Origin: Escherichia coli
GTDB taxonomy: Bacteria; Pseudomonadota; Gammaproteobacteria; Enterobacterales; Enterobacteriaceae
Length of the DNA stretch: 64,000 nt
Strand: one strand, 5' to 3'
Assembly (NCBI RefSeq): GCF_003334385.1
Contig: NZ_QOWN01000018.1
A program made the position numbers and the translations under genes. This document shows, in pieces, positions 21,535 to 64,000 of this stretch. The first letter of the stretch is position 1. The number at the start of each line of letters is the position of its first letter. The notes beneath the pieces were generated by a model. The model ran no database searches. It was not told where the DNA came from and saw only the letters and a list, made by a program, of their open reading frames with translations.

Positions 21535-21895
21535 CGTAACTTACTCATTATTCTTACATTGACGACTAAGCTGCGGGCAAAGTAACGCCTTTCCGGGTGT
21601 GAACCGATGGCCTCGTGTCTAGTCGCGTCGCCAACCTCACGGTTATCGTCAGCTCAAAGAGGCGCAGAGTGTCGGTTGCCCGTTTTTCATGCGGAAAAAC
21701 AGCGCAATTATCAAAGAAACAGACTGGGTATTACTCTCCAGAAATATTTCCATCTACCGGTAAGGACTGCAACCCGCAGCCCGCTAACTGCCTGAAAGAT
21801 CAATACGTCTTACGCCATTGCTGCGTGGATGATCGGTCGGGCAAAATGGGTTATTCCGTAAAATTTCTTGTTTTAACAAGGATGGACACGGAAAC
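21535..21895 (-). promoter_or_regulatory. rne long 5' UTR / autoregulatory leader (approximate)
   Basis: 572 bp non-coding gap upstream of rne start codon; K-12 rne is known to have a ~361 nt structured leader mediating RNase E autoregulation. Confidence 0.5.
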
Positions 21896-23177: not shown

Positions 23178-23762
23178 CTATCCCATCAGCGGGTTTTTCC
23201 CTTCCCGACGTAACATCTGACACAGCGCGATTAGCGGTAAACCAACCAGCGTGTTAGGATCACGCCCCTCTAAACGCTCAAACAGCGTAATGCCAAATCC
23301 TTCACTCTTAAAGCTACCCGCGCAGTGCAGGGGATGCTCTTTACGCACGTAATTATCAATCTCCGCCTCGCTCAGGTGACGGAAATGGACGTCAAAAGGC
23401 TCCACTTCTGTTTGCAGATGCCCATTCGCCGAATTAAACAACGCCAGTCCAGTATAGAAGGTGACGATATTGCCGCTGGCTTTGCGTAATTGCAGACGGG
23501 CATTTTCTTCCGTTAACGGTTTACCGGTGATTTCGCCATCAAGAACACATACCTGGTCTGAACCAATAATTAAATGATCCGGATAACGTGACGCCAGAGA
23601 TTGCGCTTTTTCTTGTGCCAGTCGAAGCACCAACTGTCGCGGTGATTCGTCGCTGCGTGGGGTTTCGTCGACCTCTGGTGCTGCACATTCAAAAGAGATT
23701 TGCAGTTTTTCCAGAAGAGCGCGACGCCATGGCGAGGTGGAGGCTAAAATAAGTTTAGGCAT
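23178..23762 (-). CDS. yceF: Maf-like nucleotide pyrophosphatase YceF
   Basis: ORF 23178-23801; start at [20 protein letters not shown] (194 aa). Confidence 0.9.
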
Positions 23763-23769
23763 ATTTTTT

Positions 23770-23930
23770 TCCATCAGATATAGCGTATTGATGATAGCCA
23801 TTTTAAACTATGCGCTTCGTTTTGCAGGTTGATGTTTGTTATCAGCACTGAACGAAAATAAAGCAGTAACCCGCAATGTGTGCGAATTATTGGCAAAAGG
23901 CAACCACAGGCTGCCTTTTTCTTTGACTCT
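23770..23930 (+). ncRNA. sraB: probable SraB small RNA (yceF-yceD intergenic), approximate bounds
   Basis: Established knowledge places SraB in the yceF/yceD intergenic region in K-12; here a 7-bp stem (aaaggca...tgccttt, ~23897-23919) followed by tttttcttt provides a plus-strand intrinsic terminator; 5' end not determinable from sequence. Confidence 0.35.
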
Positions 23931-59996: not shown

Positions 59997-60787
59997 TTAA
60001 CGTCCCCTGTGTTACCTTTCGTTTTATCACGAGCAATAAGCTGGCTGGCAATAACCATCACCAGCGACAGCACCAGTAATATGGTTGCCAGCGCGTTAAC
60101 TTCCGGCGATACGCCGACTTTGACCATCGAATAAATTTTTAACGGCAGAATTTCATAACTTGGTCCGGTGACGAACGAAGAAACTACCACATCGTCCATC
60201 GACAGGGTAAAGCTTAACACCCAGCCCGCCGCCACCGCTGGCATTGCCAGTGGCAGAATGATTTTTCGCAGAATGGTAAATTCGCTGGCACCGAGATCTT
60301 TCGCCGCTTCCAGCATTCGCACGTCAAAACCTTTCAGGCGCGAATACACCGTCACCACCACAAATGGCAGGCAGAAGGTGATATGCGAGAACAGCAGCGA
60401 CCAGAAGCCAAGCTGAATACCCAGCAGCATAAACAGCACCAGCAGCGAAATCGCCATCACGATATCTGGTGACATCATCACCACAAACAGCATTCCGCTA
60501 ACGAACGGCTTACCACGAAAGCGATAACGGTACAGCGCAACTGCCGTCAGTGAACCGATAAGCGTAGCAAACGTCGCCGAAAACACCGCCATTGTTAGTG
60601 AATGCTGCGCTGCCTGTAACAGGCTGTCGTTGTTCATCAGCAGGCTATACCATTTGGTGGTAAAACCCTGCCAGTTGATGCCAAAGCGCGAGCTGTTAAA
60701 GGAGTTCACAATCAAAATAATGATTGGGATATACAGGTACGCGTAGATAGCGGTCATAAAACCGCCGCGAAGCAGTCGACCGATCAT
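59993..60787 (-). CDS. potC: spermidine/putrescine ABC transporter permease PotC
   Basis: 264 aa ORF MIGRLLRGGFMTAIYAYLYIPIIILIVNSF...; 4-bp overlap with potD. Confidence 0.96.
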   Translation of the reverse strand: MIGRLLRGGFMTAIYAYLYIPIIILIVNSFNSSRFGINWQGFTTKWYSLLMNNDSLLQAAQHSLTMAVFSATFATLIGSLTAVALYRYRFRGKPFVSGMLFVVMMSPDIVMAISLLVLFMLLGIQLGFWSLLFSHITFCLPFVVVTVYSRLKGFDVRMLEAAKDLGASEFTILRKIILPLAMPAVAAGWVLSFTLSMDDVVVSSFVTGPSYEILPLKIYSMVKVGVSPEVNALATILLVLSLVMVIASQLIARDKTKGNTGDVK

Positions 60788-60810
60788 TCGAGTTCCACCT
60801 TCTTATTCAT
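60784..60810 (-). pseudogene. potB: potB 3'-terminal remnant (last ~8 codons, ...MNKKVELE-stop overlapping potC ATG); rest of potB replaced by prophage DNA
   Basis: Minus-strand frame upstream of potC reads MNKKVELE then TGA overlapping potC ATG (cgaATGAtc); further upstream the same frame is non-PotB-like and hits a stop at 60904-60906. PotB C-terminus recalled from memory as ...NKKVELE. Confidence 0.5.
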
Positions 60811-60953
60811 AAGGTGGAGCACTTTCAGGATTTTGAATTTATTCAATTTTTTCCTTTCTCCAAAATCTCTCCAAAACTTTTCCCCAAAACAAGGCCACGC
60901 ATTTTACAACACTTTTTTCCTGAGATGGTGACGGATATTCCATATGGTGTTTG
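60788..60953. other. probable attL region (prophage/chromosome junction) containing potB tail, potC RBS and A-tract repeats
   Basis: Interval between int stop codon and potC start; potB identity is lost upstream of ~60810; the core cannot be delimited without attR. Confidence 0.45.
60855..60892. repeat. three phased tccaaaa / ccccaaaa A-tract repeats (~11-13 bp spacing) in the attL arm
   Basis: ctccaaaatctctccaaaacttttccccaaaac; helical-repeat spacing typical of intrinsically bent DNA or arm-type/IHF sites in lambdoid att arms. Confidence 0.4.
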
Positions 60954-62072
60954 TCAAATAACCAACTTAACCCATTCCTGACCTCGAGTATCGTTATAGC
61001 GATCGGTGGTAGCCTGGACTTTATGTCCCAGTAATGTTTTTGTATCGACACCCTGTGCGCGGTACAACCGTTCTGACAGGGAGCGTTGTTCATGAAATGT
61101 TGGCGGTGTTTTTCCTGCTGGTGGAATTATTCCAGCCAGATCTCGCGCTTTGGCGAAGTAATCGCTCAGGTTGTCTTTACTCATCGGTTTTGGTTGTTTC
61201 TGGTGCCTACTATGGATTAGGTATGGACTCAACATTCTGTCCCTGCATCCATCAATAACTTCTTTTAACGATACCCCAATTTCATCGCATCGTAGCGTAA
61301 GAGGTAAGGCCAGACGCATTCCGGTTTTTCCTTGGGTTATATGTAGATGTCCATTCCATACATCTGAAAAACGCATGTGGCAAATGTCATCACGGCGCTG
61401 ACCAGTAACAATCGCAAGAAGCATTGCGTTACGGATAAAGTGTTTTTCTGGCGTTGCATTATAAATTTTTTGCCAGTCTTCCAGGGTGAGTCTGGATCTG
61501 GTCACTTTAGGGATCGGTTTACGGGTAGCCTCCAGAGGATTCCATCCAGGAGGAACTTCTCCCGCATGCTGTGCTTCTTTATAAATATCAACCCATAATC
61601 CGCGATTTACTCTTGCTGTGCTGACCATGTCTTTATCCATCCACTCGTCCAGTATTAATGCAAAGTCTCTTACCTCCAGTTCTTTCAATGGGTGGTTTCC
61701 CAGGCGGGAAACCAGGTATGCAGCCATTCGCACTTTTTCTTTGTGGGTTGTAGCTGCAATGTCTCCATTTTTCAGTCGCGAATCCTGTATTTTCAGATAT
61801 CGATCAACCCATGCCTTTAATCTGATACCCCGACGTTTTGTTGCTGATGGACTTTCATCAATTTTGCGCATGAAATATTCTGCTTCTGCTGCAGCTATTC
61901 GCTGATTGGCTGTTGCAGCGATTTTTTCTGCCTTGACTTTGTCTGTCCCAAGTCCGTGAAATTTTCCAGTCACAGGATTTTTATACTGGTAGTAAACCTT
62001 GCCAGTTCTGCGATCAAACTTTTCGTAAAGAGCTGCTACGTCAGTACTGTTTTTTCGTGGCCTCGGTGACAT
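60954..62072 (-). CDS. int: lambda-family tyrosine integrase
   Basis: 372 aa ORF; C-terminus ...FHEQRSLSERLYRAQGVDTKTLLGHKVQATTDRYNDTRGQEWVKLVI closely parallels lambda Int catalytic tail (H-x-x-R, catalytic Tyr); N-terminal arm-binding-like domain. Confidence 0.9.
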   Translation of the reverse strand: MSPRPRKNSTDVAALYEKFDRRTGKVYYQYKNPVTGKFHGLGTDKVKAEKIAATANQRIAAAEAEYFMRKIDESPSATKRRGIRLKAWVDRYLKIQDSRLKNGDIAATTHKEKVRMAAYLVSRLGNHPLKELEVRDFALILDEWMDKDMVSTARVNRGLWVDIYKEAQHAGEVPPGWNPLEATRKPIPKVTRSRLTLEDWQKIYNATPEKHFIRNAMLLAIVTGQRRDDICHMRFSDVWNGHLHITQGKTGMRLALPLTLRCDEIGVSLKEVIDGCRDRMLSPYLIHSRHQKQPKPMSKDNLSDYFAKARDLAGIIPPAGKTPPTFHEQRSLSERLYRAQGVDTKTLLGHKVQATTDRYNDTRGQEWVKLVI

Positions 62073-62310
62073 GGGTTAAAATCTCCTTCAGTGCGTCATC
62101 ATCGCCAGTATGAATTTCCGGCGCAATTCCAGCTTCACCCGGTCCAACAAAGACTGCGCGGCGATCTATTAGCCAGCGACCACGAATTTTTTGTGGTCTT
62201 GGTACGATGTATCCAAGTTTTCCGTATTTCACCAGGGTAGTGTTTGTTATTGGGAGACTGAACCGCTTAGGTTTCCACTCGTCGAGCGTAATCAGGTACT
62301 GTTCGCTCAT
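62041..62310 (-). CDS. xis: excisionase (Xis-like winged-helix DNA-binding protein)
   Basis: 89 aa from ATG at 62310 (MSEQYLITLDEWKPKRF..., compare lambda Xis MYLTLQEWNARQ); directly upstream of and overlapping int by ~30 nt, as in lambda. Confidence 0.7.
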   Translation of the reverse strand: MSEQYLITLDEWKPKRFSLPITNTTLVKYGKLGYIVPRPQKIRGRWLIDRRAVFVGPGEAGIAPEIHTGDDDALKEILTHVTEATKKQY

Positions 62311-62371
62311 GACCATCACTCCGGAACGCGCCAGTTGCAGAATACCAACTACAACCGGCGACGGTTGAACA

Positions 62372-64000
62372 TTAAAAATCAGCCTGATTCGGGAACAGTT
62401 TTTGCCAGATAGCTGAAACGTATTTTGCCTGGTAACGCGCATCGTGCAGGGCATTATGGCGTTCACCCTCAAATGTGATGACACTTCGAGCATCGAAATC
62501 CATCACCAGCCCCAGGGCAACAATCGTTCTTACATCACGATCATTGGTGTAACGCCACGGGCAGGGGATCTCCTGCCGTTCATATGAACGGCGTAAAATC
62601 ACGTTGTCGAAGTTGGCTCCATTTCCCCAGACCTGAACAAAAAATTCACCGGAGTTTTCGTCGATAAATTCCCGTAATTGCAACAGTGCGTCATCCAACG
62701 GGATTTCATCGGTCAGAATGGCTGATTGTGCTTCCCGTGACTGTTTCAGCCACCACTTAATGGTGTCCCGATCGATGACTCCGCCTGCGGTTTCCAGATC
62801 GATAGTTTTGCTGAATTCTGGCCCCATCTCTCCGGTTGCCGGATCAAAAAACTTACCGGCCAGAGAGTTTATTGGCGCATCAGGATTTTTGCCCATTGTT
62901 TCAAGGTCAATCATCAGATGGTGCCACAACCTGCTGGTGGATGTGATAATGTGATGACCGTTCACCGTAATTAAGGGATCTGCCGTCTCGCCAGTTTCAC
63001 TATCGCTGGCGTGATCCTGAGCGCTGCCAGCATTCTCCTTGTGTGGATGTTCAGCGCCTTCCATTTCCTTCGGATCATTTTCCTGAACTTCAACCTGATT
63101 CTCTTCATCGAATGTTTCTTGGTATGTTGCGTCGCCCATCACCGCGCCACAATCAGGGCAGTTGCCGCCGCCGGTCTGACCGCAGGCGGTGCAGATCTTT
63201 TCCGGTTCCTGTTGCACTACTGGTTCAGGTTGTTTCGTTTCTGGCTCGTTTTGTAACGCATTTGGACTGTTTTGTTCCGCTTTCTGGTCGTTCTGTTCCG
63301 ATTCTTGCTGGTTCTGGTTTACAGAATCGCGGGTTTCAATCCCCTTTACCCATTTCGGATCATTCGGGTCGCTAATCCCTGCAACAAATTCTCCGCGAGA
63401 GGCAGCAAGCAACTTATCGGCGTCAGGCTGGCTGATATTGGCTGCCTGCATAATTTTGTTTACTTCGTCAGCGGTAACTTTTACCGGCTCTGGTTGTGCG
63501 GTCGTGTCAGATGCACCAGTATTTTGTTGTGAACCTGAGTACGTGCCGTTTTTACGTGCGAAGTATTCCTCTTTTGTGATTTCCGTAGCTCCCAAGGCTA
63601 GTGCTTTTTCCAGACCAGAAAGTTTGTTTGCGCGACCGTATTTTTCGCCATCCTTGTCGGTGAAGAGGAAGTAGAACGGCCCCTCACGCTCTACAGATGG
63701 TTCAACTTCCACTTTGCATTCGGTTTTTTCGTTGCCCGGAATTGCCGTTTCCACTGCATCAGTTTCTGGTACTGGCGACGAGAGAGTATCAGTTGCGCTC
63801 TGATTTCTTCCTTCATCTTCAAACACGCCCTTTGTAGTCAGGTATTCAGTAATGTATTTGTTCAGTGCCACAGGGTCTTTGTGAATGTCGATCGGACGTT
63901 CACGGACAAGGCCAAAAATAGTCTGGCGGTCGTAGCGAAGGGCATCAGGCTGTTTGCGCATTGATGCCGAGATACGCTTCCAGTCTTCGCGGTCGTTGTC
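62372..64000 (-). CDS. phage modular protein with C-terminal DEDDh (DnaQ-like) 3'-5' exonuclease domain; N-terminal part runs off window (frame open to 64000)
   Basis: Continuous minus-strand frame with no stop to the window edge; exo motifs I (LMIDLETMG), II (WGNGANFDNV), III (HNALHDARYQA); C-x2-C-x7-C-x2-C zinc ribbon (ICTACGQTGGGNCPDCG); acidic/Gln-rich low-complexity linker. Confidence 0.75.
   Translation of the reverse strand, partial: DNDREDWKRISASMRKQPDALRYDRQTIFGLVRERPIDIHKDPVALNKYITEYLTTKGVFEDEGRNQSATDTLSSPVPETDAVETAIPGNEKTECKVEVEPSVEREGPFYFLFTDKDGEKYGRANKLSGLEKALALGATEITKEEYFARKNGTYSGSQQNTGASDTTAQPEPVKVTADEVNKIMQAANISQPDADKLLAASRGEFVAGISDPNDPKWVKGIETRDSVNQNQQESEQNDQKAEQNSPNALQNEPETKQPEPVVQQEPEKICTACGQTGGGNCPDCGAVMGDATYQETFDEENQVEVQENDPKEMEGAEHPHKENAGSAQDHASDSETGETADPLITVNGHHIITSTSRLWHHLMIDLETMGKNPDAPINSLAGKFFDPATGEMGPEFSKTIDLETAGGVIDRDTIKWWLKQSREAQSAILTDEIPLDDALLQLREFIDENSGEFFVQVWGNGANFDNVILRRSYERQEIPCPWRYTNDRDVRTIVALGLVMDFDARSVITFEGERHNALHDARYQAKYVSAIWQKLFPNQADF

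Follow-up and report, generated by a model that had tools for sequence, protein, structure and literature searches.

Lambda Xis is 72 aa long, and the crystal structures show no order for its last 18 residues. This C-terminal tail points at the arm-binding domain of Int. The xis gene of lambda is directly upstream of int and overlaps it by 23 nt. The filament formed by lambda Xis recruits the N-terminal domain of Int to P2 (PMC7145599). A longer excisionase, the 94-aa Xis of Gifsy-1, combines a DNA-binding core at its N-terminus with an unstructured C-terminal tail, residues 73–94, which is sensitive to protease (PMC2603039). The Apl protein of phage 186 is described as a recombination directionality factor which doubles as a regulator (bioRxiv 10.1101/784983).

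The excisionase gene analysed here is found in a 64-kb stretch of Escherichia coli DNA, called the window below. As in lambda, it is placed directly upstream of a gene for a tyrosine integrase with an arm-binding domain, is co-oriented with it and overlaps it, and its relatives are arranged alike. The genes are as follows.

62372–64000, minus strand: exonuclease gene upstream of xis, which runs off the window end
62041–62310, minus strand: xis, for an 89-aa excisionase (recombination directionality factor), identical to WP_000003739.1
62041–62072, minus strand: xis/int overlap of 32 nt; the last 10 xis codons and the stop codon are int codons 1–11 in another frame
60954–62072, minus strand: int, for a 372-aa lambda-type tyrosine integrase with an N-terminal arm-DNA-binding domain at residues 1–64

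The xis frame runs on the minus strand from the ATG at 62310–62308 to the TGA at 62043–62041, and its product is MSEQYLITLDEWKPKRFSLPITNTTLVKYGKLGYIVPRPQKIRGRWLIDRRAVFVGPGEAGIAPEIHTGDDDALKEILTHVTEATKKQY. Residues 5–12 are YLITLDEW, and the N-terminus of lambda Xis, translated from NC_001416, is MYLTLQEW; the motif YL(I)TL.EW is common to both. An earlier note on this DNA had given these coordinates, the length of 89 aa and a lambda-Xis-like N-terminus, and all of them are correct on re-reading of the minus strand. The same note had considered that an internal start might make the protein much shorter. Three lines of evidence support the start at 62310. It has GGAG 8 nt upstream, and an ATG is kept at the matching position in the diverged xis homologues, each with a purine-rich, Shine-Dalgarno-like stretch (GGAG, GAGAG, GGAGA, or AAGGG). 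The RefSeq CDS is the same 270 nt, in a strain 99.9% identical across the region. The in-frame sequence upstream of the ATG is unconserved among the homologues, and an in-frame stop is seen at most 13 codons upstream of the start in three of the nine. Judging from the profile matches given below and the purifying selection in diverged homologues, the xis ORF exceeds chance expectation. The 150-aa ORF at 62041–62493 is only the mechanically longest frame, and it overlaps the 3' end of the exonuclease gene.

Xis matches the excisionase profile PHROG 629 with an E-value of 4.6e-26, between residues 4–85 of 89 and profile positions 2–81 of 82. It also matches Pfam Exc (PF07825), the lambda Xis family, at residues 7–58 with an E-value of 9.1e-5. 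By pairwise BLASTP, the identity to lambda Xis is 29% with an E-value of 0.004. A phmmer search of Xis against PDB sequences missed lambda Xis and returned chance matches only (nitrite reductase, E about 0.1). The relationship is thus remote at the sequence level, and profiles and fold comparison are needed. NCBIfam profiles match neither Xis nor Int, and the close-alignment search for related loci returned only copies with 98–100% identity. The RefSeq protein WP_000003739.1, with which Xis is 100% identical, is named "excisionase".

The AlphaFold2 model of Xis, based on an alignment of 21 sequences, has a mean pLDDT of 81.7, with values of 89–94 over residues 11–50. Its topology is beta-alpha-alpha-wing, followed by a low-order linker and then a helix at residues 72–86. 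The protein can be divided into two parts.

62146–62295, minus strand: winged-helix DNA-binding domain, codons 6–55, with a strand at 6–8, helices at 9–16 and 23–31, and a wing of strands 40–42 and 45–49 (AlphaFold2, Foldseek and Pfam Exc)
62044–62145, minus strand: C-terminal tail, codons 56–89, with a Gly/Pro linker at 56–69, the acidic patch DDD at 70–72 and an amphipathic helix at 72–86

When the model is compared with the PDB by Foldseek, the best six matches are all Xis of lambda or HK022, with probabilities of 0.93–1.0. The superpositions give target-normalised TM scores of 0.72–0.79 and rmsd values of 1.8–2.1 Å over 51 columns. The winged-helix fold predicted here is therefore in common with that of lambda and HK022 Xis (PDB 1LX8, 1RH6, 2IEF, 2OG0, and 1PM6).

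Winged-helix proteins of this size are versatile, and some recombination directionality factors double as regulators, as seen for Apl of 186. It could be considered that the protein is mainly a transcriptional regulator, a small DNA-binding protein similar to AlpA, Cox, or Apl, rather than a dedicated excisionase. However, in all relatives examined the gene overlaps int at the position canonical for xis, and the families and structures that it matches best are those of lambda-type Xis rather than of Cox, Apl, or AlpA. A mainly regulatory protein is highly improbable. The reading as an excisionase of the lambda Xis kind, proposed in the earlier note, is supported by PHROG, Pfam Exc, the fold model, the position next to int and the RefSeq name; the prediction of a winged helix and the alignment with Xis families, which that note had named as checks, both came out in its favor. 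The gene is already annotated and belongs, as a very common member, to the lambda Xis (Exc) family.

The tail starts from G56 and is 34 aa in length. It is rich in Gly, Pro, and acidic residues, as the earlier note had described, and carries a net charge of −4; that of the basic winged helix is +7. The corresponding tail of lambda Xis is 18 aa in length with a charge of +6. The extra length relative to lambda is mostly the Gly/Pro linker, GPGEAGIAPEIH, and a longer helix. The amphipathic helix is ALKEILTHVTEA. Its conserved face consists of L74, I77, L78, V81, and A84, which are at i, i+3, i+4, i+7, and i+10. These residues would form one hydrophobic helix face, as expected for protein contact.

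It had been proposed that such a tail is not typical of minimal excisionases of ~70 aa. Within its own family, the tail is typical. The close full-length relatives from E. coli, Salmonella, and the Enterobacter cloacae complex are all 87–89 aa and all contain the matching tail, ...PEIHxDDD(D/E)xL(K/R)xILxxV(T/A)xATKK, and the 82 positions of the PHROG profile cover it. L74, I77, L78, and A84 are invariant in relatives which are 59–86% identical overall, and the relatives conserve the tail better than the DNA-binding domain. The members of the PHROG 629/WP_000003739.1 family in E. coli, Salmonella, and Enterobacter also share the same type of Int and mostly the same integration site at potC.

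The resemblance extends beyond the close relatives. Distant Exc-family members of 73–93 aa contain the acidic patch and the L-[KR]-x-I-L motif in the alignment. The motif D-D-x-L-K-x-I-L of this tail aligns with D-P-x-L-[KR]-[RK]-I-L of relatives of 74–80 aa and with G-G-L-L-K-R-I (LLKRI) of the lambda Xis tail; an L-K-x-I motif is thus present at the aligned position in both this Xis and lambda Xis. Since an acidic patch often precedes the L-[KR]-x-I-L helix in the wider Exc family, lambda is the outlier with respect to charge. The tails of Exc-family Xis vary in linker length and charge while the L-[KR]-x-I-L helix is kept, and this helix could guide tail-swap work on the specificity between Xis and Int.

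The e14/PPompW XisE-like excisionases, which are about 80 aa, show 46% identity to this Xis over residues 6–78. They share the domain plan, in which an acidic patch is followed by L-K-R-I-L/M, and their genes overlap a lambda-type int by 17–23 nt. Unlike this Xis, they have a shorter linker, a tail ending with ...EDGAxx, and an Int whose N-terminus is MARPRKY.... Gifsy-1 Xis is likewise a longer excisionase with a flexible tail; no sequence relationship between it and this Xis was detected, and both its family and its integrase partner are different.

The earlier note had placed the end of the tail ~30 nt into int. This extension is real, and its length is 32 nt. In the relatives, the xis stop is 6 nt earlier, at a TAG, which is CAG in the window. 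The change from TAG to CAG in xis is a change from AAT to AAC in int, synonymous for Asn8, and the xis frame gains QY before the TGA. This stop loss (window 62041–62049) turns a 26-nt overlap into the 32-nt overlap. The E. coli Xis is thereby two residues longer than the relatives from outside E. coli, namely from Enterobacter and metagenome-derived loci, which are 87 aa and end with ...ATKK. The overlap is 17–29 nt in six relatives; the 87-aa relatives have 26 nt, which becomes 29 nt if the gene caller has chosen a GTG one codon earlier as the int start. Together with the 23 nt of lambda, these lengths indicate that the xis/int overlap is the usual arrangement of the lambda family.

The ribosome-binding site and the start codon of int are placed inside the tail-coding sequence of xis.

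62083–62088, minus strand: int Shine-Dalgarno sequence AAGGAG, within xis codons L74-K75-E76, 10 nt upstream of the int ATG

Given this placement, the tail itself could be functionless, a run-on of the xis frame into int that is kept only for the ribosome-binding site and the start codon of int. The last 9–10 xis codons are dual-coded, and in the overlap the synonymous divergence (pS) collapses to 0.09, compared with about 0.8 elsewhere, the signature of dual coding. The stop loss in E. coli, which adds two residues and is synonymous in int, also shows that the extreme C-terminus tolerates change. Yet the codons upstream of the overlap behave differently. Nei-Gojobori proportions across six diverged genes give pN/pS values of 0.31 (winged helix), 0.36 (linker) and 0.19 (codons 70–78). 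Codons 70–78 are upstream of the int overlap, their synonymous change is saturated (pS 0.89), and their pN/pS is the lowest of the protein. A pN/pS of 0.19 at such a pS outside the overlap indicates that the constraint acts on the protein, not on the nucleotides. In addition, the Shine-Dalgarno sequence of int varies among the relatives (AAGGAG, AAAGGAA, or GCGGGGAA) while L-K/R-x-I-L is kept. A mere run-on is very unlikely, and the tail is selected as protein and not merely as the leader of int.

As for the expression of the two genes, the sigma-70 scan of 60700–62500 found no promoter-like site, and no lambda-style CII box (TTGCN6TTGC, up to one mismatch) was found in xis, in which this region differs from lambda. 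An internal pI-like promoter is thus unsupported by the sequence, and co-transcription from an upstream early promoter is the likely arrangement of xis and int. The two genes would form one leftward operon behind the exonuclease gene. Translational coupling between xis and int, as suggested in the earlier note, is possible; int has an AAGGAG of its own. The predicted RNA fold around the int start is no more stable than that of shuffled controls (z +0.57), which gives no support for coupling by unmasking of the ribosome-binding site. Reinitiation would have to bridge a long distance, as 32 nt separate the int ATG from the xis stop downstream of it. The upstream exonuclease, 830 aa in the near-identical strain 2013C-3033, combines a C-terminal 3'-5' exonuclease domain with a CxxC...CxxC motif in its centre (CTACGQTGGGNCPDCG).

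The partner of Xis is a lambda-type integrase. Int matches PF09003 at residues 1–64 (E 1.3e-21) and the catalytic domain profile PF00589 (E 1.4e-18). It is 36% identical to lambda Int over the full length, and the positions of the catalytic R, H-x-x-R, H, and Y align. Its N-terminal domain is basic, with a charge of +7. These observations can be combined with those on the tail. The ORF is probably the Xis of a lambdoid prophage at potB/potC, whose winged helix binds the P arm of attR and whose tail contacts the arm-binding domain of Int. The N-terminal 55 residues would be a lambda-Xis-type winged helix which binds and bends the P arm of attR. The tail, which would be the counterpart of the C-terminal tail of lambda Xis, would most likely contact the basic N-terminal arm-binding domain of the cognate Int through its helix. 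This contact would recruit Int to an arm site specific for excision and direct recombination towards excision. The analysis shows the gene, its family and predicted fold, the conserved and selected tail, the overlap, the lambda-type Int and the att core, whereas the DNA binding at attR, the contact between the tail and Int, and any translational coupling are inferred. As the charge of the tail is −4 and that of lambda is +6, the mode of contact, as well as any DNA contact proposed for lambda tails, need not carry over.

Two further observations can be related to the tail–Int contact. In the model of a fusion, Xis-(GGGGS)6-Int 1–75, the pLDDT of residues 71–80 rises from 80 in Xis alone to 92, and that of residues 61–70 from 68 to 81; this comparison concerns pLDDT only, and contacts are not visible in it. 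The pLDDT of the winged helix drops in the fusion model because the alignment is shallower. The rise in the tail is indirect and only suggestive evidence of docking on Int. The other observation is a natural hybrid, P0013 (L087:535–1894), in which residues 1–56 are identical to this Xis and are followed by a XisE-type tail. P0013 is followed by an Int of the XisE/ompW-site type, and the recombination junction falls within the linker that joins the DNA-binding domain to the tail. The hybrid fits the pairing of the tail with Int, although the physical linkage of the tail codons to int explains it equally well.

The acidic nature of the tail might also point to another or an additional role. The tail could fold back on the basic winged helix and restrain non-specific DNA binding before Int engages, could mark Xis for degradation and so keep it short-lived, or could contact a host factor. 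The charge of the tail is opposite to that of the lambda tail and to the +7 of its own winged helix, the DDD(D) patch is conserved, and the tail helix has a pLDDT of about 80 even when Int is not included in the model. On the other hand, an acidic patch before L-[KR]-x-I-L is common in the Exc-family tails which accompany lambda-type Ints. Considered together with the charge of the Int N-terminal domain, this fits a shared role in contacting Int, and roles of the former kind are unlikely. It can be speculated, with still less probability, that the tail is an intramolecular DNA mimic which masks the basic winged helix until the basic arm-binding domain of Int displaces it. If true, this excisionase family would have a built-in switch that lambda Xis is without. 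The locus is of little significance beyond its correct annotation.

The other elements of the recombination module are found between int and the end of the prophage.

60857–60889, minus strand: TTTTGGRGA in three tandem copies, spaced by 11 and 13 nt, in the arm next to int (P'); candidate binding sites of the Int arm type
60798–60809, minus strand: att core (attL), 12 bp, TGAATAAGAAGG, inside the 3' end of potB (last codons), 22 nt upstream of the potC ATG

The homology to prophage-free genomes, which have empty sites, ends at 60809. The 12-bp core is common to attB, to attR of NZ_CM129862.1, and to the window. TTTTGGRGA has only three matches in the window, and the pattern was derived from those same repeats. 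A fourth copy is seen in the opposite (P) arm of the NZ_CM129862.1 lysogen, about 130 nt from the core. By analogy with lambda, these repeats are likely arm-type sites of Int, arranged like P'1–P'3. Xis would bind in the P arm, which belongs to the far prophage end and is not reached by the window. The P arm of a related lysogen (L099) was searched for repeats, and no convincing repeats could be assigned as Xis sites.

The element is a common lambdoid prophage at potB/potC, with int next to attL as in lambda. The int-xis module is present, at a coverage of at least 80%, in 1,626 of the 5,426 complete E. coli genomes. The intact, lambda-style int-xis-att module in such a very common E. coli prophage suggests that the prophage is probably able to excise. 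potC and potD are downstream of int. No sigma-70-like promoter is seen between int and potC, so the expression of potCD may depend on read-through from the prophage.

Several other features of the prophage and its host are noted here. The insertion, seen at the core and over 60785–60953, separates potAB from potCD by a whole prophage. The C-terminus of PotB in a related lysogen is changed from ...NKKVELE to ...NKKATEIDD. The P arm of the L099 lysogen contains a perfect 14-bp inverted repeat, GGCATGCTTTTTAC / GTAAAAAGCATGCC, at L099:14308–14341, with a distance of about 65 nt to the core. This repeat would be downstream of int in the circular phage, and in the prophage it is separated from int; the arrangement recalls the retroregulation by lambda sib/tI. 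In 2013C-3033, which is the closest strain (L096, NZ_CP027323.1 1034976–1036499), the far end of the prophage abuts yodB/zinT, not potB. This junction suggests a rearrangement between prophages. The phage record ON470612 ends within a tail fibre gene. The attR-proximal cargo of strain SW070917 (L099:15195–21302) encodes an S6-family (SPATE-type) autotransporter peptidase and a YadA-like adhesin. Elsewhere in the window, the only Rfam matches at the gathering threshold are the rne 5' UTR element (21559–21895, minus strand) and the SraB sRNA (23756–23924, plus strand), both of which are ordinary features of the E. coli chromosome.
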